Shown here: one piece after another, positions 2,273-24,962 of the stretch
How positions within the stretch are numbered: position 1 is the stretch's first letter
Layout: every line of letters begins with the position of its first letter
NCBI GenBank assembly: GCA_022813865.1
Contig: JALDZX010000052.1
Span: 124,001-149,435 of the forward strand
DNA from: Xylographa opegraphella
Taxonomy: Eukaryota
DNA length: 25,435 nt
Direction: 5' to 3'
Notes under the pieces: generated by a model
What the model saw: only the letters and a program-made list of their open reading frames with translations
Told to the model about the DNA's origin: nothing
The model's database searches: none
Position numbers and translations under genes: made by a program

Positions 2273-3642
2273 TGGCGGCGTCGTCGATCGGAGATCTCAT
2301 TGTTATTGGCATACAAACATAGACCACTACCTTTCGAGCTCAGGATATCACACCACGGTTGTCGTTTCTGCACATAGTTCAGGGCTGCAATGAGTTTCAC
2401 TACATTTTTTCATCTCACAGCGGCTGGAGGCCGACTGGTGGTCAGCATCTTTTCATCTTGCTTGCAGCGATTTTCCTTGTTGTTATTTTTTTCTGTCGGG
2501 GCGGCCAGCTGTTTCGCGGGGATAATTGAAGGTGCGATCCAGATGGCTTGGGGAGCCGGACTTCGGGGCTCCGTTGATGGTTGCGATAGCAATATTGGGG
2601 AAAGGCGAGATACGCTCGCCGTTTTCGCTGTGGATGAGGAGGGTGTCTAGCTGGGAGTAGATTGTGCGGACGAGATGTAAAATTAATTGAGGGCACGTGA
2701 GGCTAGGCGTGAATAAAAAGGAGAATTTTGAAGTTGTGAACGCGTGCCACGATTTTGATGCTGGAGTAAGGGGTATGTGACAAGCTTCAGTCAGCCTTGC
2801 GGAGATCTGGGCTAGCTCGACTGGGTAAGTGAGAAACCTGTCGCTTCATTGTCCTTGACGGTAGAACCAGTCAAGAAAATCTTTCGACATCTCGGCGATT
2901 ACAGCACTGTCCTGGCATCCACAACATCGACATGTTATCTAGACACTTCATTGTTAGTTCTGGGCTTCAATTACCCGGAGCCAGCGTTCTAGCTTCCAGC
3001 CTTCCGCTGTTTGAGGTGTGGCAGCTGGCAGACCGGGGGTGATGCAGCGTCCTATTGCTCAGCCTGGTCCAGCTCGGCCACCCGAATACCGAATGCCAGG
3101 ACATCCCTATGCACTGTCTTATCTCTGCTGCGGTCCAGAGAGCCACCAGATGGGAACGAGGGAAAACTGTGTGGACCCAATCCCCGCTTCTGCCATGAGC
3201 AGGCCATTATTACTGCTCTCTTGCATTCTTCCTGGACTCTTCTCCATGCCATGTGATTATGGAGTGAGCATGAAACTGACACGGATGCTAGCATTGTGCC
3301 GCAATACTGATAAGCTTGGAATTCGACGGGCCTATCAGTATCGAAGTTCTTTCCGTCGTTTTATGCAGCAGGGCCCACGATCTGCATCAGCCTCCCATGA
3401 AGAAAGCGCCACCAGAATGTTGATTGGCGAGGCCACTCACCCAGAAGACTGTGGGGGCGGATTTGGAGCAGGCTGTGCTAACAGTACTGAGTCGCTTCAT
3501 CTCAATATCCCCTTCCCCACTGCTCGCTGCCCGTTGCGAGAATGATCAACTGCTCTGAAGAGAAAGAGAACTGGTGGCCTGCAAGTTTCATTCTCGACCG
3601 AATGTAATTGATATTACGCAACGGAAGTTCCGTGGCCTCCTG

Positions 3643-6600
3643 ATGGATCCAATTACCATTCTGGGTGCTGTAGCGACGGCTCTGAAGCTCGTCAAAAGCG
3701 TCTGCGAAATCATCCAATGGATGCAACAGGTCAACGATCGTCTGAAAAATTCGAGTCGAATTCTAAAGATGATCTACCTCGAGTGCAACATCTATGGAGA
3801 CTCCATCAAAAGCATCGGTGCATGGCTGAAAGAGAATCAGTCTACGAAGGGGCTCCAGAAACAGCTGCGCACGACCCACAATGCTATCACCCTCGTCAAG
3901 GTCTCAATGTTGAACTTACAGCGCGATTTAGAAACCATTGGCAATGGGCAGGAGAAACTTACCATCAAGTCCTTCAAGAACTGTATCAAAGTGAGGCACC
4001 AGTGGTTCGAACAGACCATGAAGAGTCATCTTACCGAGCTACGGTGCCATAGCCAAACGCTCCAGCTAACACTTCAAGTCATTCAGCTGTAAGTATAAGC
4101 ACTCCCGAGACTATGGCTATTTGCTCTTGGTGACCGACTTTAGAACTAAGCCTTCAGAACTGTCACCTGCAGAAGCACAAAAGGCACCAGAGAAATTGGA
4201 ACAGAAGACGAGGAGCCTGGAGAAGAGGTTACTTCTTCGGCATTTCCTAACGAAGGCCCTTGAGATACGCCGTGCCGAGATCGCAGCGGACGAAGAAAGG
4301 CAAAATCAAGTCATGAAAGAATTTATACGACCCGCGCCCGTGTCTCCATTGATTCAGTCTCCGATCCTTTCAGAGGGTCAACCTCAGACACCAACTCTCT
4401 TGACTGTAGCTGAGCAGACGCGCCAAAACGCCGGTGCTGAGAAAGAGAATAAACCCGAAGACCTCTTATCAAATGATATTGAGGATCTGATTGACTTCTC
4501 CAACGAAGCCAAGAGTCTACCTACCTGGGGGGCGACGACCGGTGTTTGCGGTCTTCAAGACCTAGTTGGTCTCCGCTGCCTTTCGATGCCGCAACAGAAT
4601 GGACCTGACAATGCTGACAATGCCGAGAGTGATACTCCCGATATGCATGTTGTGTTTCATCAATCGAACCTGCAGTCTCCTCAACTCGTCTCTCCGCCTC
4701 AGACTGTCAGTCTTGACTTAGTGAATACTGATACTGAGCGCCAGAAAGACGCTGAGAAATTCGAACCCGAAACGGCAGAGCGTTCCCAGATTGTCTTCCA
4801 GTTTCCAGCTCCATATGCTGGCATGGCAAACGTCGACGCTCAAAGCATGCTGAGTGGCCGCAACTTTGATCTATCGCCCACCACAACTGCAACACCAAGC
4901 ATATTCAGTCATGCCTCAACTTTGACCAGCGCGAGCGATTCTTCCTTGCGTGACATAACAGACGGAGAGCTTCGGGAACGCGAATTAAAGACACAAACCC
5001 TGTCAAACCAGTCGTCAGCGCCATCACAAACTCTCTGGCGGAAGGCTGTGAGATCATGTTCATCTGAAAGCCTTGAACAGAGTAGTCTTAGTAGCCCTCA
5101 TACGGCATCGTATCCTGTCTCACCGCCGATAATCCATGAAGACGCAGAGTTTATTTCATCAACTATGAGTCGAGCTCCCATCGGAGACAAACTGGCGTCT
5201 ATGAAATTCGAATTACCACCCCGAAGCAAGTCCGGGGAATTGGTAAGTCAGCTTGAGTCTATTACCGTGGCATCCCTCCAAGAAATCAACAAGCCGGATG
5301 GAGCAGGCTTCCCGTGGATTGTCCAGGCAGGACGCGACGGAGACGAAACACAGACCAAGAGGCTCATTATCAGCGGGGCTAATCTTGAAGCCGTACATAC
5401 CACAACTAAAAGAACTGCACTCTGCGAGGCGTCGTTACACGGTCATAGCAATATCGTTAATCTTCTCATCCACGAAGGTTGCTCGACGAATCATGCCGAC
5501 GCCGAATCTTACACGGCGTTACATCACGCGTGCCACAAAGGACACCTAGCGACAGTCAGAAGCCTTGTCGAAGCCAAAGCCGATATCGAAGCCTTGGGGC
5601 CACAGAGCAAGACACCTCTACACCTTGCGGCGCAGGTGCCTCATAGAAATGTGGTTATGCTGTTACTACAGTCGAATTCAAACATTAATGCGCGAGACGA
5701 AAATAATCAAACTCCTTTACATATCAGCGCCGCACGAGGCAATGTCGAGATGTGCAGCTATCTTCTCGAGAACGGCGCCCAAGTCGATAACAGAGATTCC
5801 AATTCGAAGACTGCTCTCCAATTAGCATGTGAAGCCGGCCACTATGACGCAGTGGAGGCAATGCTGAAACACTCGAATCTGAGAATCACTGATCTGACCT
5901 TTCTCACGGCCTTCTTTGCAGCTGTGGAACATGGCAATGTTCGCGTTGCCGAAAGCTTTCTCTCCCGAGGGCTGGACCTTCAGAAGCTGAATAAGAAAGA
6001 TATCTATAAACCAGCAACAATAGCAGCCAAGAGCGGAAGTCCAGCCATGCTTGAGCTGATGATACGCGAGAATTGTAGCATCAAAGCCAAAGATGATGAC
6101 GACTGGAACGCTCTACACTTCGCTGCTCACCGTGGTCATTGGCGACTGATCGAGCAATTGGTAGGCAACGATGTGTCTGTGAAATCCGCAACAAGAATGA
6201 AAGACACGCCGTTGACTCTTGCTGTCAAAGGAGGGCACTTTGCAGCCGCCGAGATACTCCTTCGTAGCAAAGGCATCTCTGTAACAGTAGAGGATGGACA
6301 GTCAGAACAGCCAATCCATCACGCAACTCGAGCAGGATCATTCGAACTCTTCAATCTCCTAATATCTAATGGTGCTAAGATCGCTGTGGAGAATGCGTTT
6401 GGCTGGCATCCTATCCATATCGCTGTAGCATATGGTCATACAACACTGGTCAACAGATTGATCGAGCAATCAGCCAAGATTGAGGAGAAGCTAGGTTCAC
6501 CAACGATAAAGCACGATCAGACACACAAGATGGTCGAGGATGGTTACTGGGCTGAGGCTAGATGGCCATACCCTGGCAGTCGTCCGCTACATCTGGCCTG

Positions 6601-8035
6601 TGAATACGGGCATTATCAGATTGCATCTAACCTCATAAGCAAAGGTGCGAAGCTGGAAGCCACATGTTCAGAAGGATGGCGGCCACTACATCATGCGGCC
6701 TTCAATGGCTCGTCCGCTTTGGTAGCACTGCTGCTCAACGCAAACTGCTATCCGTGGGCCGAGACAGAGGAAGGCAATATACCTCAGACGCTGCAGTTTC
6801 GAACAGCGGGTTCCCCAATCTCTCAAGAGGAAAAGGATAAAGTGCATCTGCTGCTACAAGCGGCCATGGATAGGACGACCAAGCAACCCGTGGCGAAGGG
6901 ATTCAAGGTTGGGCTGAAGAAGGGTCGCACAGTGGAAGAGAAGCATAATCTAATTCGAGCTGCGACCTTCTCGATGGAGATGACTGCGAAAGCGCCAAAA
7001 CAGAGTACAGAAATTCATCGCTCTAACCACAGGCAACCCCCAATGCCGCACTCGAATACCTTCCCGAGCGCTCTCCCAAGCATACATCACCCAGCCCTAG
7101 CCGCCCAACCGTCTCAGTCTCTACTTATCGAGAGACCAGTATCCGGTAGTTCGAACCGTGCCGCCATCACAACAAGCGAATCGAACTCAGAAACAGCAAT
7201 CAAAATCGCTTCCCCAACAGCGAGTCTCATAAGTCTCCCTTCTACTGCACTCAGCGAGTCCAACTTCGCAAAAGCACCCAACAATGAGGTTATGGCCCTA
7301 GGGACTGCGACCACTGTTGCTTTGCAGCATTCAATAGGTCCCGTGCAAGGGCTACCGGACCTGCCTATGAATTTGATGAAGAACAAATTTAAGCTCAAGC
7401 GAGCTTCGACCTTCGGGGTGGGCATCTCGAAACAGGGTATCGAAAAAATGTCAAGCGGGTTGGGCTCTTCGAAGCAAGGATTCGAGAAGATATCAAGTTA
7501 TTCGCTGGATGTGTCGAAGCACGGCATCGAAAAAATGTCAAGTGGGCTCGGCTCTTCGAAGCAAGGGATCGAGAAGATGTCGAGCTATTCATTGGATGTC
7601 TCGAAGCAGGGTTACAAGAAGATGTCCAGTTACGGACAGAACATGTCGAAGCAGGGGCTTGAGAAGATGAAGAAGATCAACTACGGGCAGAACGTGTCGA
7701 AGCAGGGCCTCGAAAAGATGAAGAAGTTCGGTAGCAGGAAGGACAAGAAGCTCGCGAACCAGGACGCGGATGGGGAGGATGCTCACCACCGTGATCGTGC
7801 GAGCGCGAAAACTTCGAACCTCAACGTCCCCAATGCGCCTGCCCTCTCGCAAAACTCGGGAGGACTTCAGGATTTGGGGCCAGGTGCAGGGGGAGGTGCC
7901 GCGGATGACACGACCGGCCAGGAACCTGGGAGCGATGAGGAGCTCTCGTATGACAGTGATGGTGCGGCAAGCACCGGTGCGTTCTCGCTGGGCGGATTCG
8001 ACACTTATGATGCTGGTGGCGACGATGGGTTCTGA
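3643..8035 (+). CDS. 1445-aa ankyrin-repeat protein with N-terminal HeLo-like/SesA-type (fungal STAND N-terminal) helical domain and C-terminal tandem peptide repeats
   Basis: Exon 1 3643-4088 (MDPITILGAVATALKLVKSVCEII...ELRCHSQTLQLTLQVIQL), phase-2 intron 4089-4143 (GTAAGT..TAG), exon 2 4144-8035 in frame. About 14 ANK repeats (TALHHAC, TPLHLAA, TPLHISA, NALHFAA, RPLHLAC, RPLHHAA) at about 5305-6760. The HeLo-like call is pattern recognition of the MDP+hydrophobic helix start and the LQLTLQVIQL end. Confidence 0.85.
7427..7729 (+). repeat. Coding tandem repeat: 7 copies of SK[QH]G[IFYL][EK]K[MI], period 14-17 aa, with an 87-bp higher-order duplication
   Basis: SKQGIEKMSSGLGS / SKQGFEKISSYSLDV / SKHGIEKMSSGLGS / SKQGIEKMSSYSLDV / SKQGYKKMSSYGQNM / SKQGLEKMKKINYGQNV / SKQGLEKMKKF; DNA units begin TCGAA[AG]CA. 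Confidence 0.95.
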
Positions 8036-8366: not shown

Positions 8367-8963
8367 CATCAGCATCAGCATCAGCATCAGCACACCGGAA
8401 CCCTGCATCCTGCATCCTCTCCTCCTGCCGCTTCATTCCCAGCCACCACGTCCAACCCAACTCCCCATCCCTTCCCTCCCCGCTAGATAAGCAAAATCCC
8501 ACACCGCGCTGGCGGAACTCATAACTCCTGACTTCCATCTCTGCGTCGCGCCGCGGTGGGACTATTTGTCGTCTTACTTAATAGGTATCCCTAGCGCTCG
8601 CTATAGAATACAGATACGGGGCAGGGAGGCAGGCAGATAGGCAGGCAGCGCCAAGACTGCACGCACGCACGCACGCAGTCACGTAGGTCTTATGTGCTGG
8701 CAGCTATGGAGGGTGGAAGGGAGGGAGGGAGGGTAAGAGGGAGGGATGGGATCGTCGGGATGGATGGGATCGCTGGGTTCGCTGGGATGGAGGTTTCGAT
8801 CTCCTATCCGATCCCTCCCATCCCATCCCATCCCATCCCTCCGCAGCGGCGAGGGCGAGGGCGAGGGCGAGGAAGCACCACCGCTATTTCGCGAATGGGA
8901 TACGATAGGAAGCGATGGGTTATCCTCCACGATCCACAAAACAACCGCACATCCACAAAACAA
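8367..8963. repeat. Cluster of simple sequence repeats in the convergent intergenic region
   Basis: (CATCAG)4 8367-8390; (GCAC)4+ 8659-8677; GGGAGGGAGGGAGGG 8719-8733; (CCCAT)n about 8817-8839; (GGCGAG)4 8848-8871; ATCCACAAAACAA twice (8932, 8951). Confidence 0.9.
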
Positions 8964-9695
8964 TCCCGTCTTCCGTCTCGAAGCCAGCTGCAGAAACCAG
9001 CGACAGGTGGTGGCTTTCAGAGACGGTCTACGCCCTACCTCCTACCAACACCCCCACTCGCGGACATGGAATCTGCCTCCCGCGAGCCGTTTTCGTCGCC
9101 CGGGAGCGGGAGAGCGACGAGTGGGTGGGAAGCCCACGCGGCCCCTGGGGAAAAGATACGGCGATGCTGATGGGGTTTGGGGTAATGGTAGATTACTTGT
9201 ATGTAGTATGCAGCATGCAGCATGCGCGGGCGTGCTCTTATGCAACCATCTCGACGACGAGAGGCGGAGACGAGACCCCAAGGGCGGTTTTTTGGTGTGC
9301 TGTTATGCTATGAGTGATGAAAATAAAAAAAATGTGGGTATCGAAGAAGAAAGTACAGAAGTGCAGTAACAAAGTAGCACGAAAGGTGATCGCCCGTGTA
9401 AATTCGCTCCGTTCTTTTCATCCAAATGCCGTAATTAGGGTAGGGTAGGGTATTGATGGAAAGGTGCGGGATACAAAAGCATGCAGATGCCCAACTGACT
9501 GACCGACCGCCGTGCAATATTGCCCCTTTTATGCTTCGCCGCCGGATGCTAGGTTAACCACCACCACCACCGCCATCGCCATCACAAGTGCTGGACTGGT
9601 ATGCTCGTATCGAGATTCCCTCCCTCCCTTTCCCACAAAACACAGAGGTATGCCCACCCGGTATGCGAATGCAACGCGCTCCGCCCTGACCCACA

Positions 9696-11228
9696 TCACA
9701 TGGAGCAGATCTGGGAGAACTTCCGCGCCGTCAGCGGCTGCGGGAACACGCCGGCGTCCAACAGCCTGAAAAGGTCCCACTCGGCGCTGGCTTCGGTCTT
9801 GAAGTTCCAAAATACCCAGCCGCGCGTGTACTGCTCGTAGACCTCGAGCTGGGCCTCGATGTAGCCGCGCACGTCGTTGCGGTACGTGTCGTCCCAAGTG
9901 TTGATGTCGTTGATGGTGGCGCAGGAGCCGACGAAGGAGGAGCCCGGGTAGGTGCCGTCGTAGCGGGCGCCGATGAGGTAGCCGTTCAGGGCGGGGGCGC
10001 AGTCGGTCATGGCGGCCGTCCACTCGCCGACGACGGTCCAGTGCGCTTGGTTGGCGGTGTAGCTGAAGGCGTTGTTGCAGACGAGTTGGCGATGTTGCTG
10101 GGAGGGGAATATGTTAGTGATGTGGTTGGCTGTGGGGATGAAAAGTGGAAGTGGAGGTGGGTACTTACCCAGGGCACGAGGGCGACGTCTGCATTGGAGA
10201 AGACTTGGTATTCGTGGTGGTCGAGCACGACTGGCTGGTTCAGCTTGGGTACACAAATGTGGAGCAAAGACTACATACCGTTCTGGGCCCCGGGCGGGAC
10301 CAAGACGTTGCTCCAGAACCCGTCAGGCTCAAACGCATCCTGGATCATGACTGGGGTGTTGCTGACGTCCCGGACGGCGTTGTAGCCTTGCTGGTAGAAG
10401 GATTCGAGCTCCGGTGTGCTTTGCAGCGCCGAGGCCAGAGGCTCGTTCAGCAACTCGATCGCGACCACCACGTCCTGCATCGACGGCGTGGCGTATTTGC
10501 CCGCCATAATCTGGATGACCTCGAGCGTCTGCTGGACCGTGGAGCCCGACTCCCATCCCGGCTTTGCGGTTCGATGGCCCGAGTTGTCGTAGCCGTTCTG
10601 CGAGCCCGGAGCACCATGCAGGTCGATCCACACTTTGAGATTTGTCTGTCGAGCCCAGCTGATTGCTTGGTCGAGATATTGTTCTGCGCCTTGGATGTAT
10701 GGCTCTCCTGGGACAAGCATAAATGCCCAATCTGAAGCCTCATCAGCTACCATGTTCGTCGCTATCGCAAGCGGAATTCCATCAACTCACATCCTACTGG
10801 GATTCGGACGGTATTGAAGCCGGCCGCGGCTATTTTCTGGAAGTCTGTGAGTGTCGCCCACGTCGACCAGTGCTGCTGCAGGATGGCGGCTGCATTCGGC
10901 ACCATCTCGCACAGCGTCCATTCGTCCACAACGGAGCCATTCTGCGCCTGGAATATTGAAGGAGTGATCCACCTAAGTATATGAGTCAGCAACGGGAAGC
11001 GAGCAGAAGGTGAAAGGTGTGTGTGCTTACGGTTCCAGCACCAGCCAGCCACCGATGTTGACGCCACGAACTATCTCATTCCCGAAGTTAAACGCAGCAT
11101 CTCGGCGGAGGATTGGAGTCCTAGGGATTTAGGTCAGAAAGGGGAGGTTGTATGTGCCGTGGCATGAACACTCACGCATGAGCAGCCCCCAAAGCTAGGA
11201 TGGCCGTGAACAGCCGATTGATCCGCAT
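9696..11228 (-). CDS. exgA: Secreted glucan 1,3-beta-glucosidase (exo-beta-1,3-glucanase), GH5 (Exg1/ExgA-like), 413 aa
   Basis: Six exons (minus strand): 11228-11176, 11120-11031, 10972-10791, 10731-10279, 10230-10169, 10097-9696; all introns GT-AG and phase-consistent. Signal peptide MRINRLFTAILALGAAHA, Kex2-like RR site, [48 protein letters not shown], acid/base ELLNEP, DHHEYQVF, nucleophile VGEW, GWVFWNFKTE. Confidence 0.95.
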
Positions 11229-13061: not shown

Positions 13062-13159
13062 ATTCCCTCGTTCCCTCATTCAGCCAAGGACTGAGCACGG
13101 CCGATATCATATTGCCTCATTCCCTCATTCAGCCAAGGACTGAGCACGGCCGAAATCAT
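13062..13159. repeat. Tandem duplication of a 49-bp unit (46/49 identical) overlapping the MEF2 stop codon
   Basis: 13062-13110 attccctcgttccctcattcagccaaggactgagcacggccgatatcat versus 13111-13159 attgcctcattccctcattcagccaaggactgagcacggccgaaatcat. Confidence 0.95.
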
Positions 13160-16064
13160 ATTCCCCGCATCTCCTTCAGCACCGCCTTCTCCCGTTGAGA
13201 TCCCATCCGCTCAAAGCGGTCAATGGCCATGACGAAAGTCCCTCTGCCGCCCGTCAGACTTCTGAGATGCTTGAGGTAGCCTACCATTTCCTTGAGCGGC
13301 ACTCTGGCGGTGATGGTCCTCTGTCGGTTCCCGTTGCTCGCCATGGAGACTTCATCGTCGGTCAGCATGGAGGTGACGTCGAACGGATCGGGTGGAGAGT
13401 AGACTCGTCGCAGATCTATGAGTGACACATCGTCTCTCGTGTGGCCACCTCCGCTGCCGGAGACGATATCTGCATCGTCAAGGGATACGATATGGCCTCC
13501 GCGTGAAGACGAGAGGTCATGAACCACTGAACCCAAGCTGTCTTCGTCGATACTGATGATGACATTCATGACCGGCTCCATTAGCACGGTTGATACTTGC
13601 TGGAACGATTGCTTCAGAGCAGCTTGGGTGGCTAAACGAGCCGCCGAGGTCAAGGCCGATGGAGTAGTGTCGGTTCCAAAAACCTGGGTGGAGAGATCAA
13701 GGGTGACGGAAACACGTGTGCTGTGTAGAGCGAACGAGTGCTGGGGGCCACGTGCGAGTGCTGTGAGAGCACCATTCTGCAGGGCTGTCCTAATCATCGT
13801 TTCTGAGAGGTGTGGTGGAATGGAAATAGTGGACGAGTCTGATTCGATTTCCTGGTCTGCGCTCCGGATCAGATGGACGTCGATGACATTGCCGTCTTGC
13901 TGGAAGGTCGTGTCAAACCGACCGACTTCTGGCTCCGATGAAGTCTCGATCAGAGGGCTGACAGAGGCTGTACAAGCCGCCTTTCCACTTCTTCCCGCTA
14001 TTTCTCGGTCGAATAAGGCTGTAGAAGGTCCTCCTGATGCAAGGATGCATTCACGGTACCCAATCTCAATTTTTCCCATTGAAGCTTTAGCCTTCAGCTC
14101 CTGGACTAGACGATCTCTAGCAATCTCCAGATGAAGCTCGCCCATACCACTCAGAAGGGTCTGGCCGGAGTCCTCGTCAACGGAGAGATGGAGACTCGGG
14201 TCTTCACGGAGGAGTAAAGCCAGCGAATTGGCGACCGTTTGTTCCTCACTCAAGCTTTGCGATTCGATGCTTGCAAAGAATACTGGAGGTGGCACTTCGA
14301 TGGGACGAAGCTGAAGAGTATTCAGCGGGGCAGGTGGGCCTGATTTCGGGTTTGCGCCAGTATACGCCACTAACGTATCGCCCGTTCGTGCGTATTTCAA
14401 GCCAACAACCACACCGATTTGACCAGCAGAAAGAGCAGCGACTTCAACAGCGTCGGAAGCATACATCTCTAGCAGACGGGGCACTCGCTCCGAAACTTGC
14501 AGATTTGTGTTGAACAGCATCGAATTACGCTGTACAGTACCATGATACACACGTACATACACGAGGACTCCCCTCTTGGGATCGTTGACGACCTTGAATG
14601 CAAGGGCACATGACTCTAATTTGGCAACTGCGGCGGACGAAGACTTCTTTGATGATACTGCATGCTTCGCTTTGGACGGAACGACTGCTGTTGTGAGAGC
14701 CATCTTGGCTTGAATCAGCTGTCTTAGCCCCCCTCTCGTTCCTCCAACGCTAATCTCTGGGTCCGGGCTCTCTTCTGGACTTGGCAAGAGACTGATTACA
14801 GCGTCGAGTAGAGGTTGGACTCCAATGTTCCGAAAACTAGCCCCTGCAAATACAGGCACAAGATTTTTCTGGTCCAATACACATCGACGAAGAGCAGCCG
14901 TGATATCCTCGGCCAGTATGGCCATGTGATCCTCGTTACATTCGAGATACTTTTCGATAATCAAATCATCGTGTTCACCGAGCAGCTCAACAAGTGCTGT
15001 TCGAGCTCTGCGAGTCGTTTCCGCAAGCTTTGGCTCCAATGCTTCAAGCTCGTCTAGGCCCATGATTTTCATAATTTTACCATCTCCACCGTCGGGCCAG
15101 TGCAGTCCTTTGAGTCCGACAATGTCAACTATACCAGCGAAACGACCATTTCCGCCCTCAAACCAAGGTATCTGGCACACTGCGGGCCATGTATGAAGCT
15201 TGGAAGCAATCTCTTTGATTGTCTTTCCAAAAGCAGCACCGTCTCGATCCAACTTGTTTACGTAGATGACCTTAGGTATCTTGTACGTTGCTGCTTGATA
15301 CCAAACCTTTTCCGTCTGAGCCTCGACGCCAGCTACGCCATCTAGAATGCAAATGGCTCCGTCGAGAATCCTCAGAGAGCGAAGTACCTCGAAGGTAAAG
15401 TCGGCATGTCCAGGTGTATCTATCAGATTGATAGTATGAGGCTCCACGATTGAGGAAAGAGGCACTACTGGCTTTCCTATAGCACCAACGGCTGCTCTAT
15501 TCTCTGTCTTCAAGGCTGGCCAATGGAAAGTAATGGCAGCTGATTGTATGGTAATGCCTCGAGCTCTCTCTGCTGGCAGAAAATCTGTCACTGTCGAGCC
15601 ATCATCGACATCTAGAATGGTAATCAGAACCGAACAGTAGGCCACGTTGAGCAGAATGAGAAAACAAAGCAAGAGCAGCAACAGTTTAGAAAAAGGAACA
15701 TTTGATATACAACTTGATACTGCAGAGACACTGAAATAACAAAATTTGAAAGGTGATAGGGGGAAAATACCGCCAATTCTGCGTGTATAGCCACTATAAT
15801 AGAGCATACGCTCTGTCGTCGTTGTTTTGCCCTTCAGAAGACTTAGCACAAAGTACGGCTAGGAGAATGATGAATCTGCCGAACAGCATCAATATGTGCA
15901 ATAATTCCAATATTTCTTGTCTTCCAGAGCGCTTTGGAATCGGAACCAGCACTATCATGGAGGAACTTTCTTGTGAACGCCCCTTGGGACAGGGCCAGGC
16001 TGGATCTCTGGCATGTAAGCTGAGGTGTGAGAATGGCCCATCTTGGGCCAAAGATAGTCTGCAT
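13156..16064 (-). CDS. MEF2: Mitochondrial ribosome-releasing factor 2 (EF-G2mt/RRF2mt), about 898 aa
   Basis: Exons 16064-15885, 15831-15771, 15611-13156; introns 15884-15832 and 15770-15612. Splicing restores [25 protein letters not shown] (G1), [26 protein letters not shown] (G2), DTPGHADF (G3), NKLD (G4), [10 protein letters not shown] and LRSLTGGRG. The N-terminus resembles a mitochondrial presequence. Confidence 0.93.
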
Positions 16065-16346: not shown

Positions 16347-18315
16347 ATGGATTACTCCCAGCTACCGAACGATCCAGACCACCCTCCCGGGACATCACCC
16401 TGGCAAACTTCACCTCGACAATCAAGGGGAGAGAGCTTTATTAATTCTGTCAGCGGAAGTGAGCCCCCGTCGCCAATCGCTACGAACCCTTCCTATCAGA
16501 GTGGGGCTCCTACGCCAAGTCAAGAGCAAGGAAGTGATCAAGGTACACTGGTAGCAGGGAGCAGGGAGTACTTGGGTGCTGAGGATTCTGAGCCCTCAGA
16601 AGCGCCTACGGAGAATGGGAGCTCTCCGGACCTGTCGACCCGATTGCAGAGTCCGCCGCTGACGGAGGGAGAATTTTCCTCGCAGCAACAACAATACTTG
16701 CAGCAGCAACAACAGCAACAACAACAAAGGCAGCACTCGTATCAGCAACAACAGAGACCCAGTAGGTATCAGTCAGGCAATCGGCCTACACAGCGGCAAA
16801 ACGTCCCACAACCAAAACTACAAGCGAAGATTACCGGCCTCGAGCGGACAGGAAGGAAGGATCCTATTCTACGATTCGATGTACATGTAAGTATATCGCA
16901 GCTTTCTAGATTCTGTCGTACTTATTACTGTAGACCAATCTTCCGCGCTTTCGAACCACCCAGTTTCGCGATGTTCGGCGTACGCACTCGGAATTTGTGA
17001 AGCTAGCGGATCATCTTATCTCTGCAAACCCAGATGCGTTCGTTCCAGCAGTGCCTCCTCCAGTCACAGCTGCTGGGGCTGGCACCGACGAAGATGAGGC
17101 TCGTGTTAAAAGCTCGTTACAAAGGTGGTTGAATTATGTATGTGGGAATGAGGTCTTGATGCGCGACGAAGAGATGATTCTCTTTGTAGAGAGTGATTTT
17201 GGCTACAGCCCTGTAGTTAGAATGAAGCAGCCGGCTACTGGTGTTCGAAGACGAGTCTTGAAGCAATTCGCCCCTCCTCCAGACGATACCCCCGAGCTTC
17301 ACGAAGCTCGTCCAGTGGTTAAGCTTTTCTATCTCGGTGCAATGGACACAGGTCAAAAGGTTGACCGCGTAGTGAAAGCTCGACGAGGTATGTGGCAGAG
17401 TCTTGAGTCTTATCGGGAATTCGACTGACCATGTAACATCAACCAGGTCTGGGCCTTGCAGAATCCGATCTCGGGGTCAAGATCGGCCAGATGCATGTCC
17501 AAGAAACACACCCAGGCCTCTCCAGCGCTTTCAAGAAACTCGGCCGCACGATCCAAACCACAGGCGACTACCACGCCGCCCAAGGAACCGCTGAAGCGAC
17601 CACCCTCTCCGACCCTCTAGCCTACCATTCCAACGACGCCTTCATCGTCAAAGAGACCCTCACCAACCGCCACATCCTTCTCCGGGAGCTCGTCCAAGCC
17701 CAACAAGCCACCCGGAGCAAGCTCAGCGCCGCCGACCGCCTCAAAGCTTCCGCCAGCGTGCGCCGCGAGAAAGTCGACGAAGCGATCTCCGCCCTCGACG
17801 AGGCCAAGAGCCACGAGCAACACCTCTTCCAGAAATCACAGCGCGTGACCGCAAACCTCCTCCACGAGAAACGCCGCTGGTTTGCCCGCACGTCCGCCGA
17901 TCTGCGCGCCAGCATCCGCGAGTACGTCATCCGCGAGATCGAGGTCGAGCGCCGCACGCTTGCCACCCTCGAGTCTGTCAGGCCAGACATCCGCTCCATC
18001 GATGCCAGCGGTGGGCTGTCTCGCCTCGGCAGGGAGACACACCCCGCTTCTCGACGGGCCAGCATGGCGGCTTCACAGGGTCCTCGTGGCGATGCATGGA
18101 GCGGTGTCCCACGCAGAGGTGATCAGCTGAACAGGAGCATCAGCGGAGGATTCGGAGGCCAGGCACTGCCGGAGGAGACAAAGGAGCAGGTGGCGGATGC
18201 GCAGCGGCCTGGAAGCTCGGCTGGGAGTTCGCTGGGACAGGTGAAAGAGGACGATGACGAGGATAGAGTAGATGCCAGGAACGCGGCGAGTCGGCTGGCG
18301 ACGAGCACGTTTTAG
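16347..18315 (+). CDS. VPS17: Vacuolar protein sorting protein 17 (retromer PX-BAR sorting nexin), 620 aa
   Basis: Exons 16347-16886, 16934-17387, 17447-18315; introns 16887-16933 and 17388-17446. LQAKITGLERTGRKDPILRFDVH|TNLPRFRTTQFRDVRRTHSEFVKLADHL (PX domain), LKQFAPPPDDTPEL, BAR region KETLTNRHILLREL, C-terminus RVDARNAASRLATSTF. Confidence 0.95.
16683..16753 (+). repeat. CAG/CAA polyglutamine tract in the Vps17 N-terminal region
   Basis: Encodes QQQQYLQQQQQQQQQRQHSYQQQQ. Confidence 0.9.
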
Positions 18316-18695: not shown

Positions 18696-21600
18696 TCAGA
18701 GTTCCTCCTGCAAGCCCTGCGCCGGAATTAGTGTCTCGTCTGTAGCGCTAACCACTTCCACTTTCTGTTCCGCGTCACCGAGTTCTCTTCCCCTTTCCAC
18801 AACGCCTTTGAGCACCTTCAGCTTCGCCTCCGTGACTCCAATCGCCCAATCGATTTCCCGCTCCCCGACGCCCTTCATCTCATTTATTTTGGTCTTCATC
18901 CCTCTGCCCTTCAATATCTCTCGCTTCTCATCCTTCGCTCTCCTACTAGAGTCACCATTGCCAGCCTTCGCAGCAGCAGCAGGATATCCGAAGCCGCCCC
19001 CATCGCTCATACCCACGCGTTCCTCCAGCCAGTCCCAGAGTGCAGACTCTTCGGCTCGCCAGATCTCTTCATACGCAGCGATACGCTGGGGTGTGAGACC
19101 TGGGGAGTAGGGTTCTATCCCAGAAGAGGAAGAACGAAGGCGGGAATTTCGGAACCAGGAAATGATAAGCAGGAAGATTAGGAGGCCAATAAGGGATTGG
19201 GCGGTCAGCAGTGGTTGGAATATGTCCAGGACAGGACTGAGGATGTCGTGAAGAGGCTCCAGCGGACCCCAATTGGACTTTTGGGTTGCGGCTTCGTTAG
19301 CTTTGGAGGCAGCAGATGCTTTGGTGTCGTCAGCATCTCCCTTCTTCTTGCGGCCCTTCTTCATTCTAGAGCCGCTGGTGCCTGCACGAGGTCGGCTGGT
19401 CAGGCCAGCGCGGAGAGATTTTACGAGATCGTTGGCATAGGTCAGCTGACCATCATTCGCGCCGCTTTCGATAGGACCTATATTTGAATCTTGTCAGCCT
19501 CTTGCTCACCGATGTGGATTCGCATAAACTGTATTCGAAAAGGTATCAAGGAACAAACCCTTCAGCCAGCTTTTGCCTGTCCACTCGATCATGCAGCTCA
19601 TGATTAACCTAGTACCATTATCTGGGCCCCACATTATACAATATCGTGTCTTGGTACTAAACACGCTTCCACTAGGCACATCGGGTGTTTGTGTAGTCAC
19701 AGTCACCGAAACAGATCGCTCGAGGTCAATAAAATCCAGCACTTCTGTTGTTATGCACTTCGTCTTCTTGGGTCCGATGGCTCCCGAAAGAGGTTTTATG
19801 TAAGAGTACGTTCTACTCTTGTTGTCGCCACTTAGACCTTTCTTATCGTCCTCCAGCTGTAGCTCCATAGCCTTTACTTCGTCGAGAAGGAATCTTGTGA
19901 CGAAACCCCCGGAAGTTGGACCAAAAAGCATAGAATAGATTTTTCCCAAAGGTGCAGGAATAATTTCATCCTTCAGTACGTTGGAGTAATGCTGCGTACT
20001 ATCAGTGCATTCAGTCGGTGCATGGGTTGGTGGACCTGGAAAGTCGGTGGCTGCTGCTGCTGCTGCTCCAGCCTTCTCCGCAGCCTTCGTATCACTCGGT
20101 GTGGGAACAGAGCCAGCTGCTTGACCAGCAGCAACACCGACCGCGGATGCCTTTCGGGCGACAGATTTTTGTTGCGGTTCTGGAGGCTCGCTGCCTACCA
20201 CACTTCCGTTGAGAGTCTCCACGAAGCTACCAGCTCCCTCATCGTCCTCATCATCCTCATCGTAGACTTCTTCATCGTCTTCGGAACCTTCGGAGCCTTC
20301 ACCACTTTCACTGGGCTCAACCTTCTCGGTTTTGGTTCCTGTGCCACCGTTGACTAGTTTGACACCATTCTCTGAGCTCTGCAATCCAGGATGGCTGATC
20401 TTCCAAATTCCAATCAACAGATCATAGGTAGCCTCCCTACTAAGCAAACTTCGGAATGTATGGCGAGCGTGAAGGGTCTGTATTGCGATAGCGTTTGGGA
20501 AGACCATCGCTGTCGTTTCCTTCTCGACAGAAACGACTTCATCAAAGCTTATTACCAATGTGGTTATCCAACCCAAGATATTACTAGAAAAGCATATGTG
20601 TCCTTCAGAGACATAGATCCTTCCTGCGAGGATAATATCTCGCTGAAGCGCACAACTATAGTCCTCGATGAGGTAATCATCCTCAGGTACACTCCGAAAG
20701 AGCTGGTGAAAATCCCTGTTACGCTTCTTGCTGGCAACTGCGAACCCTGTCAACTTTGGAACACTGCTATTGACGCCGGGACTCATTAGAGTAGTATGGC
20801 TTGCGTTTATCATAGCGCCAATTGTCGTCCCTGTAGAGTTTGATCCGTTTCGGCGCCTTTTCACCTTGTCAACCTTACTTCGTATACTAGCATTACGGAA
20901 AATGCCGCCACTTTCACCTTCGTAGATGCTTCCGTTTGGTGGTGTCTTGTCTCCGGAAACGCTGGGTTCGTAGTTTGACTTTGGTCTACTTATAGCTAGA
21001 GTATCCTCTGCGGTTGGAGTTGTTGTGGTACCGGGATCTGCTTTTTCACCGTATGCCACAGATACAGCGCGAGCGGCGAAAACATCTTCAGCACGAGCAG
21101 CAGCCTCTTCTCGATGGACTGAGTCAACGTTGCTATCACCACCAGTCAAAGCAGGACTGACAGCTGTGGTTGCCTGAGAAAGCGCATCACTCGATATGCC
21201 GAGCTGACTCAAACTCAGATCACCGGAACCGATTGTGTCAACAGCGAGCTTTCTAGGCTGGTCGACCGGGTGAGTTGCATCCTGATTCTCAGCAACGGCC
21301 AAGATTTCGGACGGCCTTTCTTCCGTATCACCAGTACCACTTCTTGACCGAGATGGGTTATTCCCTATCGTGTTGGTGAAAGTGTTTGCAGCATTTTGAG
21401 CGGCCACGAATACCGACGAGAAGAACCCAGTAGAAGACGCAGCATTCCCTGAAGTAGTCCGAGAGCCTGGTGTCTTGGTCTCTTCCATCATCGGCGTAAG
21501 TGGAGCAGACATTGCATTAGAAAGTTTACTGGGCTGGTGAGTGGCAGAGTCTGACCTTACTCGCCGATGAGACGGCACGTAGGAGGGTAGGTTGCCCTTA

Positions 21601-23038
21601 CTGGAATTGACAGCGTCAGGACTGTTGGAGCCAGTCGGTGCGTCAATTTTGGCGTATAACGATGTTCCAGAAGCTCCTTCAACGCCACCATCTACCGGTG
21701 TTGGCGGTGTGACTGTGGTGATTGGTGCCTCAAGGGACGAGCGAGGTGGAGTTGCCGGAACAGTATTGAGAGATGGGAGACTTTTGTTACTTGATTGTGC
21801 CTCCGTATTCATAGTCTTCAGAACTGCTGGAGCGACTGGAGCGGCTGTAGTACTATCTGCCACCTTAGATGACCGGCGTGAGGATATACTACCAATTCGG
21901 TCTTTGCTAAAGAGCGCACCCAGTGAGGTTCCAGGCCCAGATGACCCCGTTTTACGTTCAGGACTTCCATTGTGTGTGCTATTCTTACGAGAACCTGGCT
22001 TAAATGCCTCCTTTAGTCTGAAACCCGGAGAGACGCTCCGGGACACTGACCTCCCAGATCCCAGTGAATCCACAGAATAAGTAGACTCGCCGGTAAGAGG
22101 TCCTGGGCTAAATATCTCTTCACTGGTCAGGTTTGTGTTGATAGATGGAGTACTGGTGGTTGTAGGAGGGTTACTCGTGGACTCAGCAGCCTGGACGGAA
22201 ATTAATGGGCTGTAGTTGAAAGGCGGCGAGATAGACTCTTCTGGAATAGCCGCAGCCTTCACAACCGGAGAGGACGACGTCAGATAGCCAATATGCGACT
22301 CATGGCTAACCAGTGGAGGGGCAGCACTATGGGTTCTATTATTTTCAAATTAGCATTCGGGAAACGTTCCTTGAAACGCGTGTGGCACGGAGCAGAGATA
22401 TGTAATATGGTCTTTTGTGCAGCTTTGAGACTGTCTGCTGGATCTTCGTGAGCCATATTGAGGCAAGGTATCCAATGTTGATGTGATTCGTTGATACGGG
22501 CTGCAATGAAATGGTTTGGACTATGCAGGCAGCACACAGCTCTCACTCTTGAGGAGAGCAATGAAACGAGCCTGAGGAAAGAGATTATGGGAACAGCAAC
22601 TCACTGTTCTTCTTCGGAGTCTTCTGTCATCTGACTGCTCCCATCGTCGTCATCCAAGATACTCTGGTTCTCACTGCTCAATCCTGTGCCAGTGGCAGCC
22701 TCGCCATCCCCGGCACGTCGTCCACGCGGTCCTTCCGCATCTTCAGCCTCCTCCTTTGCCCTGCGCTTCCGCTCTTTCCTTTTCCGCGTCCCAGGTATCA
22801 GTTTAGCAATACTGACTCCACTCGATGTATCAGACGGATCGTTATCCTTACGCGCGGCGTTCTTGATCTTTTCCAGCGCAGAATCCATAGAGTCACGGAG
22901 GCCATGACTTTCATTGCTCCCTTCAGAGGCCGGAAATGAGGTTGTAGAGGAGTTGTCGAGCTTATTTCGTCGAGCTTTTGCAAGCATGCCCTTCAATCCA
23001 AGGCCGGAGGGAGCGGGAGAGACCTCTCCAGAAGCCAT
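18696..23038 (-). CDS. GRAM + VASt (StART-like) + transmembrane membrane-contact-site sterol transfer protein, Ysp2/Lam/Ltc family, about 1327 aa
   Basis: Exons 23038-22605, 22326-19559, 19477-18696; introns 22604-22327 (278 nt, GTGAGT..GCTAAT..TAG) and 19558-19478, both phase-consistent. GRAM: RNRDFHQLFRSVPEDDYLIEDYSCALQRDIILAGRIYVSEGHICFSSNILGW. VASt: YSYIKPLSGAIGPK..TQTPDVPSGSVFSTKTRY..WTGKSWLKGPIESGANDGQ. TM: LIGLLIFLLIISWF, then YEEIWRAEESALWDWLEERVG. The exact yeast orthologue (Ysp2/Lam4 or Lam5/6) cannot be resolved by eye. Confidence 0.9.
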
Positions 23039-23420: not shown

Positions 23421-24962
23421 ATGGAGTCTAGCCCCCTTATTCTGGTAAGCAATCTGTACAATCCCCAAGCTTCTCTGCTCACTATCCCAGGCACACTCGC
23501 ACGCCAGGAATGCCTCCGCAGAAACCCACAAGGCCAATTCCATAGCCGCAAGCGAAGAGCATGATCTCGCCGCCGGAGAGTTCTCGAATGCGGCCCAGAC
23601 AACCAGCGATGCAGAGGTACGAAATATTTAAAGCTCTCTGATACAAACAGAGACTAAGGAAAACCACAGGCACTACGCACTCTCAAGCTGCTGGAACAGC
23701 ACCACCAGAAGCTTGCCGAGCTCCTCAAATTCCGGCCTCAAGATGTTCAATCAGTAGCTACGACCACCCAGCCCTCGTCGCCGCTACAGGAGCCATCCCT
23801 CCCGCCCTCAATCCAACCTAAGAAAATACTCGAAAGTTCTCCCCGCCACATATCACAGCATCCTCCCCCTCTGCTATCGTCTCCGCATCGAGATCTGACC
23901 TCGTCTATCGCCAGCAACCTAGCCTCGGCGCGAGGCATCCCTTCCAACCGGCAGCGTAGAGGCAACCAGCTCCCCACAACCTTGTCCTCTCAAGTCGCGG
24001 AGGGGACACTCATACCCCCTACACGACGATCCAAATCCAGCGAGCTCGATGTCAAACCGTCCCCGGGGCTCACCCCTTCTCAGGCCCGCCCCTCCGCGCT
24101 CTCTCCCACACGCGCGCGCGTCTCCAGCCCGGACATAACCACCACATCCCCCACCCGGCAGCTCCACACACCTGCCCCAGCTCCCCCAGACGACTCCTTT
24201 TCCCGCTTCTACTCCGTTTTCGAGCCCTTCCTCACCGCACTCTCCGCGCCCCTCGCCTTCGCCGGCCTCCCCCTAAACCCCGATCCACCAACCCCCACTC
24301 CCTCCGAAAAGCCCCCTGCTACCAACAAAGCCACCCTCCCAGCCCTAGACCCCGACATCACTCGCCTCTTCTCGCGCGCCGCCCTCCGCGCCGTGCAGCC
24401 CGAGCACACGAACCCACACGAGAGCTTCTACGTCGTGCCCACGACCGGCGGCACGATGTCGTACGCAGGCATGCTAGCAGCGACGAAACGTGACTCACGC
24501 CTCACGGACTCGGACGACGCCTTCGTGGACGCCCTGGAGCAGCCCCGGGCCCCGAGCCGGCGCGCAGCCGGCAGCGCGAAGACGACGGAGGAGCTGCAGG
24601 TGGAGAACGAGGCGCTGAAGGCGGTGGCCATCGATCTCGGGGACCGGCTGCGCGCGTTCGAAATGGGCGCTCAGCGCAGCAGCATGGCGCTGCAGATGAG
24701 CGTGCGCGCGATGCAGAGCCCGAGCGGGAGCATGGCGCAGGTGAGGGGCGGGGCCGAACGCGCGGCGGGTGAGCTGGAGGCCCGGGTGCGGGAGCTGGAG
24801 GAGGAGGTGCGCAGTGTGAGGAGGGAGATGAAGAGGCTGGGCAGGGAGAATGTGAAGCTGGTGAGTGTGGTGGAGCGGTATCGGGAGCGGTGGGAGATCT
24901 TGAAGGATGGAGCGAGGGAGAGGATGAGGGGGGACGGGAGGGAAGGGGAGGGGAAGGCTTGA
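23421..24962 (+). CDS. MIT-like N-terminal domain + C-terminal coiled-coil protein, probable Atg38/NRBF2-like autophagy PI3K complex I subunit, 480 aa
   Basis: Exons 23421-23444, 23491-23616, 23670-24962; phase-0 introns 23445-23490 (GTAAGC..GCTCAC..CAG) and 23617-23669 (GTACGA..ACTAAG..CAG). N-terminus MESSPLILAHSHARNASAETHKANSIAASEEHDLAAGEFSNAAQTTSDAEALRTLKLLEQHHQKLAELL looks like a MIT three-helix bundle; ESFYVV motif; coiled coils KTTEELQVENEALK and LEARVRELEEEVR..RYRERWEILKDGARER. The gene model is firm, the Atg38 identity is inferred. Confidence 0.7.

Follow-up and report, generated by a model that had tools for sequence, protein, structure and literature searches.

The 25,435-nucleotide stretch of DNA examined here, hereafter the window, derives from Xylographa opegraphella (GenBank assembly GCA_022813865.1, contig JALDZX010000052.1, positions 124,001 to 149,435 of the forward strand) and contains, at positions 3643 to 8035, a gene for a large protein with an array of ankyrin (ANK) repeats. 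An earlier note on this DNA had described the protein as resembling a fungal NOD-like receptor (NLR; NOD, nucleotide-binding oligomerisation domain) without its nucleotide-binding domain, i.e. a HeLo-like/SesA-type N-terminal domain connected by a disordered linker to an ankyrin array, and had proposed a role in immunity or cell death. Judged from its sequence and those of its orthologs, the protein looks like the product of a stable gene family, and not like an immune receptor that has lost its ATPase.

Gene structure and domain organisation

On comparative evidence for its splicing, the locus is a single two-exon gene encoding an ankyrin-repeat protein of 1445 residues (Table 1). The list of open reading frames (ORFs) in the window contains an ATG-started frame of 149 amino acids (3643-4092, plus strand; MDPITILGAV...LTLQVIQL), which the earlier note had interpreted as the first exon; this interpretation holds, with the exon ending at 4088. 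The intron that the note had placed directly downstream is likewise borne out, both by its borders in the DNA (CAGCT/GTAAGT at 4088/4089 and TTAG/A at 4143/4144) and by the product of the join: connecting 3643-4088 to 4144-8035 gives 1445 codons and a stop, and the translation is identical to the NCBI model MMC26_006173 of X. opegraphella ("hypothetical protein"; P0002 in our set). A related locus on a metagenome contig (L001), the single such locus found by a search with a 5-sequence alignment, encodes an N-terminal domain (N-domain) about 50% identical to that of the window and is interrupted by a 57-nucleotide GTAAGT..ACAG intron (7489-7545) that matches the window intron in position, phase and Leu codon. 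NCBI gene models from seven species (four Xylographa species, Cladonia borealis, Psora testacea and Calogaya) also join both parts.

The alternative that two genes are present, one for a 149-residue helical protein (3643-4092) and one for an ANK protein starting from the ATG at 4313, draws on the observation that each frame is open by itself. We regard it as very improbable, given that it would leave untranslated a stretch (4166-4321) encoding a helix (helix 5, residues 157-208) with 47-90% identity among 10 orthologs, that both splice sites have canonical sequences and L001 uses the same phase-2 position, and that the NCBI models which fuse both parts are independent. Moreover, exon 2 has no in-frame ATG before the one at 4313, and because the conserved helix 5 precedes this codon, exon 2 cannot stand alone.

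The same boundary is visible in a search of 1.84 billion representative sequences with a profile of five orthologs, which returned 48 proteins at E<=1e-3. The majority of these are ORFs of about 140-165 amino acids ending ...LQL at the intron, i.e. exon-1 fragments of unspliced gene calls, and others are exon-2 ORFs starting at helix 5; 20 of the 48 end at profile position 149, which is the intron site. Unspliced gene calling on fungal DNA seems to be the source of numerous orphan "proteins", in truth first exons belonging to this class of domain. Two of the ortholog models are incomplete, P0005 (Xylographa bjoerkii) being without the last 15 exon-1 residues that its three congeners have, and P0008 (Calogaya) being without part of helix 4 and ending within the ANK array; these gaps look like gene-model artefacts, at the conserved intron and at the 3' end of the model, and not true differences.

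Table 1. Coordinates of the features described, numbered from the first nucleotide of the window; residue numbers refer to the 1445-residue product.
Feature	Position	Strand	Description
Exon 1	3643-4088	+	Codes residues 1-148 and two bases of Leu149; four-helix N-domain
Intron	4089-4143	+	55 nucleotides, phase 2, GTAAGT...TTAG, inside Leu149 codon
Exon 2	4144-8035	+	Residues 149-1445; stop codon 8033-8035
Helix 5	4166-4321	+	Residues 157-208, predicted model; holds conserved LEKRLLLRHFLTKALEIRRAEI
Linker	4322-5305	+	Residues 209-536; S/P/T/E-rich, poorly conserved; two conserved islands
Linker island SPTTTATPSIFSHASTLTSAS	4874-4945	+	Residues ~393-416; SPTTTA(A/T)PSIFSH
ANK array	5306-6769	+	14 repeats, residues 537-1024; Pfam Ank_2 E 2.6e-71
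Most conserved segment WAEARWPYPGSRPLHLACEYGHYQI	6548-6622	+	Residues 951-975; 92% identity to three distant orthologs
Post-ANK segment	6770-6997	+	Residues 1025-1100, includes FKVGLKKGRTVEEKHNLIRAATFSM; 47-87% identity, 10 orthologs
Tandem SKQG[IF]EK[MI]SS-type repeats	7403-7732	+	Residues 1236-1345
Acidic G/D/A-rich tail	7733-8032	+	Residues 1346-1445, ends FSLGGFDTYDAGGDDGF
GH5 cellulase-family glucanase	9529-10786	-	
EF-G-like GTPase	13159-15858	-	GTP_EFTU, EFG_III, EFG_C
PX + Vps5-type sorting nexin	16934-18312	+	
GRAM + VASt lipid-transfer protein	19509-22349	-	

AlphaFold2, with an input alignment of 29 sequences, predicts residues 1-149 to form an up-down four-helix bundle (helices 3-33, 39-64, 69-101 and 108-148; pLDDT 80.7). 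A model of the first 209 residues contains one extra long helix, helix 5 (pLDDT 80.9, predicted template-modelling score 0.73; pLDDT 74-89 for the helix block), which may act like a brace beside the bundle; in MLKL, a brace helix follows the four-helix bundle. Within the N-domain, hydrophobicity peaks in the first helix, with a Kyte-Doolittle mean of 1.69 for the N-terminal 19-mer (values of at least 1.6 are found in 9 of 29 family members), and the four helices together contain 18 Lys and Arg against 9 Asp and Glu residues. The earlier reading of the N-domain as helical, its first helix being hydrophobic, is supported.

Residues 150-536 (387 amino acids) separate the N-domain from the ANK array, in agreement with the linker of some 400 S/P/E-rich residues reported earlier; residues 157-208 are, however, the conserved helix 5. 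The remainder, residues 209-536, is 13.6% Ser, 7.8% Pro, 7.8% Thr and 7.2% Glu, shares 24-61% identity with its counterparts in the 10 other orthologs (24-29% outside the closest relatives) and varies in length between 306 and 452 amino acids among 11 orthologs; it has no Pfam match, and no match to PDB sequences at E<=1. A cryptic NTPase in the linker was considered and rejected, on sequence grounds only (no Pfam or PDB match, no Walker A motif, poor conservation). Within this region two islands are conserved. Five letters of DLIDxS (residues 263-268, positions 4484-4501) are invariant in six orthologs, and around the second island identity reaches 52% at residues 401-425 as against 11-29% in the flanking intervals, its PS[IM]FS motif occurring in each of the 12 orthologs that were searched and being absent from both paralog-like proteins. 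DLIDxS and SPTTTA(A/T)PSIFSH are accordingly candidate short linear motifs.

Downstream of the array lie about 420 residues (1025-1445) which the earlier note had overlooked, although its N-domain, linker and ANK array all stand. This part starts with a conserved basic segment, continues through a stretch of low conservation into the tandem repeats, and finishes in an acidic tail. Tandem Repeats Finder reports periods of 42, 45 and 87 at 7414-7632 (residues ~1240-1312), where SKQG[IF]EK[MI]SS units alternate with GLGS and YSLDV spacers, and GKQGLE-type repeats occupy the same place in the orthologs of Cladonia, Psora and further relatives. The repeats have no Pfam match, and residues 1031-1445 gave no usable match in the ESM Atlas; in the tail, an F1429, S1430, G1432 motif is invariant in a 6-sequence alignment. 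PP- and RHIM-like amyloid motifs have a G-x-Q-x-G core, and the possibility that the KQG-E repeats form a fungal amyloid signalling motif was set aside because they are K/E-rich and their G-K-Q-G spacing is unlike that core.

Conservation of the ankyrin array and comparison with NLRs

The estimate of about 14 ANK repeats made previously is confirmed, and the array is recognised by several Pfam families with scores above their cut-offs (PF12796, 236.7 bits; PF00023, 194.8 bits; PF13637, 173.7 bits). Its length is 488-490 amino acids in 11 of 11 orthologs, with no gap of three or more residues, and at 58-87% identity among orthologs, against 24-61% for the linker, it is together with the N-domain the best-conserved region of the protein. 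The repeats differ considerably from one another (mean pairwise identity 19%, maximum 36%), such that none of the 91 pairs reaches 50% identity, let alone 85%. An insert of about 25 amino acids separates repeats 12 and 13, and after it, in repeat 13, comes the stretch with the highest conservation of all, WAEARWPYPGSRPLHLACEYGH (residues 951-975); the conservation of this segment suggests a key binding or structural site. A complex prediction for the array (residues 530-1030) with residues 1-209, run without alignment or controls, gave ipSAE values of 0.00 and 0.00, which speak neither for nor against docking of the two.

These properties do not support the sensor or decoy envisaged by the earlier note, taken as one of the fast-evolving immunity type, as the length of the array is fixed and its repeats are at most 36% identical to one another. 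In fungal NLRs, by comparison, the available text of PMC4986451 describes repeats enriched for internal identity of at least 85%, with polymorphism in repeat number and positive selection.

As previously stated, the protein contains no GxxxxGK[ST] P-loop: scans of its whole length with the strict Walker A pattern G.{4}GK[ST], the looser [AG].{4}[GA]K[ST] and GK[ST] alone all found nothing. Exon 2 matches no P-loop NTPase family at Pfam E<=1, the ANK families alone being significant, and in six orthologs the loose P-loop pattern occurs solely inside or just after the ANK region. Named orthologs of the same architecture are found in Xylographa (four species), Cladonia, Psora and Calogaya, and a paralog-like protein in Caloplaca; we take these orthologs to fall within Ostropomycetidae and Lecanoromycetidae and to represent several orders of Lecanoromycetes. 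All 10 full-length relatives combine the N-domain with ANK repeats (P0002-P0007, P0009, the truncated P0008, P0057 and the Caloplaca protein P0058, the last two being more distant relatives than the orthologs), and none of the 10 has a Pfam match to NACHT or NB-ARC, with the reservation that word-indexed searches can miss relatives. Because every full-length relative found has this NOD-less architecture, nothing points to an NLR ancestor, and the description of the protein as an NLR lacking its nucleotide-binding domain is not sustained. Searches of the open-access literature found no paper on this protein family or on a lichen protein with HeLo-like and ANK parts.

In the order of its parts, a possible effector-type N-domain followed by a C-terminal ANK array, the protein nevertheless resembles fungal NLRs. 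It differs from them in having neither an NTPase domain nor a Walker A motif, in having repeats that are old, divergent and fixed in number, in being kept as orthologs across a fungal class, and in its extra C-terminal region of about 420 amino acids.

The genomic setting is that of housekeeping-type genes, as the earlier note had it. None of the four neighbours that could be identified (the GH5 glucanase, EF-G-like GTPase, sorting nexin and GRAM/VASt protein of Table 1) is immunity-related, and no kinase was found among 25 ORFs of the window that were scanned. Two long stop-to-stop frames on the plus strand, 533-2272 (579 amino acids) and 23658-24962 (434 amino acids), have no Pfam match at E<=1e-3. 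Short tandem repeats occur downstream of the gene (CATCAG, 4.3 copies, 8367-8392; an 18-mer, 2.4 copies, 8745-8788). On L001, a second ANK-repeat coding region (2952-4202) lies about 3 kb upstream of the ortholog and is 22-32% identical to the ANK array of the window.

Affinity of the N-domain and possible function

We consider, with a probability of about one half, that the gene encodes a lineage-conserved, NOD-less protein of lichen-forming Lecanoromycetes in which a four-helix bundle is combined with ankyrin repeats, and which works as a regulated adaptor and is not a degraded NLR. In such an adaptor the ANK solenoid would bind a conserved endogenous partner and not a variable non-self ligand, a proposal made because the array is free of indels, 58-87% identical among orthologs and composed of repeats that are individually conserved and diverge from one another. 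The conserved motifs of the linker and C-terminal region, together with the multivalent KQG-E repeats, would provide docking or regulatory sites, possibly aiding partner binding. Binding of the partner on the array would control exposure of the basic, amphipathic bundle, which as the output end of the molecule would, once exposed, associate with membranes or with another protein; its output might be either lethal, in the manner of HeLo and MLKL domains that form pores or damage membranes, or merely localising.

A number of results weigh against this reading. The assignment to Lecanoromycetes draws on only nine named relatives, all of that class. Over the 7 kb to each side of the ortholog, L001 has no neighbours in common with the window, the other genes of which have no counterpart there; synteny, which the earlier note had suggested examining in relatives, was thus not seen at this one locus. 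As regards the N-domain, that of the window has no Pfam match to HeLo, HeLo-like, SesA, Goodbye or MLKL_N even at E<=10, so that the profile comparison proposed in the earlier note is negative as far as this Pfam scan goes. In a Pfam scan of 29 members of the N-domain family, matches to PF17111 (PigL_N, formerly Helo_like_N) or SesA (PF17107) were found in just four, all of them under the curated gathering cut-offs (27.2 bits for PF17111, 26.3 bits for PF17107), and chance helical families score equally well (COG6_N, two members, best E 4e-5; FH2, E 4.9e-4). A profile search of PDB sequences (E<=10) gave only coiled-coil and designed proteins and neither HET-S nor MLKL among the best 60 of 90 matches, and with either model of the N-domain a Foldseek search of the PDB came up empty at E<=1e-3. 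Finally, the best structural match (Z 13.6) is a designed protein, and the MLKL matches fall inside the noise range of helical bundles.

By any curated criterion, then, the N-domain is not a member of PF17111 or PF17107. It is nonetheless probably a divergent bundle of the HeLo-like/SesA class (PigL_N/SesA), and this part of the earlier assignment is weakly supported, with sub-threshold matches in its relatives and labels in the ESM Atlas on the one side, and no Pfam threshold reached on the other. PF17111 is touched by two of the 29 members, the best being P0053 (20.5 bits; E 3.3e-4, or 1.9e-4 for its N-terminal part), and SesA by two others, with P0046 the best (22.0 bits, E 1.8e-4); one relative, P0032, touches MLKL_N at E 0.067. 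The alignments with PF17111 and SesA are collinear from the start of the domain (P0053 1-146 with PigL_N 1-138; P0046 5-109 with SesA 3-92), and the profile of the orthologs is homologous to the distant subgroup that holds them (hhalign 99.4%, E 6.4e-22). In the ESM Atlas, where the top neighbour scores 0.96 and shares 201 of 256 features, 28 of the 30 matches are clusters in which a minority (11-29%) of members carry PF17111 and/or SesA labels, i.e. 20 with PF17111 on 11-18% of members, four with both and four with SesA; the neighbouring clusters consist of ascomycete proteins of about 141-159 amino acids. HeLo itself (PF14479) is absent from the complete Pfam results for the N-domain of the window and for 24 relatives, and from the families listed (best 25 of 75) in the 29-member scan.

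Comparison of predicted structures is compatible with, but does not discriminate in favour of, an affinity to executioner bundles. Bundles of MLKL or of plant coiled-coil (CC) or CC-R type make up seven of the best 50 VIA-align matches, each aligned from its own N-terminus: the MLKL structures 4btf_A (Z 11.4, root-mean-square deviation 2.2 A over 100 residues) and 6ux8_A (Z 11.0), followed by Rx-CC (10.5), NRG1.1 CC-R (10.2), Sw-5b (10.1), MLA13 (9.2) and AtMLKL3 (9.2). For helical bundles, values of Z below a noise bound of about 13 are uninformative; of the structural check advocated in the earlier note, the MLKL matches were thus found but remain under this bound, and Foldseek returned nothing at its threshold. 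HET-S is not among the matches listed for either model (best 50 VIA-align rows). Like the bundles of MLKL, plant CC proteins and HET-S, the domain is predicted to have an up-down four-helix fold, and the helix that follows recalls the MLKL brace; it differs in that the similarity scores lie within helical-bundle noise, with designed proteins scoring higher and no link at the sequence level, and in that no kinase-like, amyloid or NOD trigger is present on the protein.

There is also a likeness to the PigL_N/SesA class. Members of that class typically lie at the extreme N-terminus, begin MDP and have a hydrophobic first helix, and the present domain, a helical unit of the same length (about 140-150 amino acids), does likewise. 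PigL, which presumably has no NACHT domain, offers a precedent for the architecture. Pfam now names PF17111 "Pigment biosynthesis cluster protein PigL N-terminal", and the available text of PMC9815663 identifies it as the former Helo_like_N; MpigL, from the azaphilone pigment cluster of Monascus, is listed as an "Ankyrin repeat protein" in Table 3 of PMC6431638, as far as the available text of that paper goes. A PF17111-type N-domain attached to ankyrin repeats is therefore already a named combination. The present family departs from it in that no member reaches the Pfam cut-offs, the domain of the window matching nothing, and in the addition of helix 5, a linker of 306-452 amino acids, 14 ANK repeats, the KQG-E repeats and an acidic tail.

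It is possible, though we think it doubtful, that the protein is an ordinary ankyrin scaffold whose N-terminus is a generic bundle or coiled-coil for protein contacts, for example in trafficking or at the cytoskeleton, with no link to HeLo-like domains or MLKL. Such a scaffold would agree with the strong conservation of the ANK array, with the lack of any Pfam match for the N-domain of the window, with PF17111 and SesA matches in relatives that are no stronger than those to chance helical families, and with the identity of the high structural matches, which besides designed bundles include IncA, a gamma-tubulin complex protein, dynactin p150 and the THATCH domain of Sla2/HIP1R. It accounts less readily for the labels on 28 of the 30 best Atlas neighbours, for sub-threshold hidden Markov model alignments that are anchored at the start and span the whole domain, unlike local coiled-coil stretches, and for the extreme N-terminal position of the domain, its MDP start and its hydrophobic first helix, all of them features of the HeLo-like/SesA class.

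It appears unlikely that the protein is an immunity or cell-death module of NLR type, with a disordered linker in place of the NTPase, ANK repeats that sense a non-self or guarded target and a HeLo-like bundle that kills by inserting into membranes, or else a decoy of such a system. The effector-like N-terminal bundle with its hydrophobic first helix (Kyte-Doolittle 1.69), the presence of MLKL, Rx-CC, NRG1 CC-R, MLA13 and AtMLKL3 among the best 50 structural matches (Z 9.2-11.4) and the partial labelling of Atlas neighbours with PF17111 or SesA would all suit it. Against it, no NACHT or NB-ARC match occurs in any of the 10 full-length relatives, the number of ANK repeats is unchanged in all 11 orthologs and the array is the best-conserved region, the genes around it are of housekeeping type, nothing was identified that might oligomerise the protein in place of the NOD, and orthologs persist over what we take to be Ostropomycetidae and Lecanoromycetidae. 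According to the available text of PMC4986451, ascomycete NLRs carry ANK more often than any other repeat type, and that of PMC12258605 counts HeLo-like domains among the NLR effectors that form pores, whereas internal repeat identity of at most 36% stands against the enrichment for at least 85% identity and the length polymorphism of NLR repeats in the former source. An executioner without a NOD, conserved in Lecanoromycetes, in which the fixed 14-repeat solenoid holds a conserved partner, endogenous or related to the symbiosis, whose loss or modification frees a HeLo-like or MLKL-like bundle, braced by helix 5, for attack on the membrane, we also hold to be improbable.

For the present, the locus offers a conserved hypothetical protein whose evolutionary pattern is unremarkable, and the practical yield is modest. 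The entire sub-family escapes the Pfam models PF17111 and PF17107, and the coincidence of the domain boundary with a conserved phase-2 intron accounts for many orphan ORFs of about 150 amino acids in unspliced gene calls. The cell-death and recognition pathways of lichen-forming fungi are almost unstudied. For Xanthoria parietina, the available text of 10.1101/2024.08.16.608140 gives only 23 putative NLRs. If the executioner were to prove correct, it would represent NLR-independent gating of a fungal necroptosis-type domain that is specific to lichen-forming fungi. Should the N-domain belong to the HeLo-like/MLKL class, lichen-forming fungi would be using such bundles outside NLRs, mounted on conserved ankyrin scaffolds.

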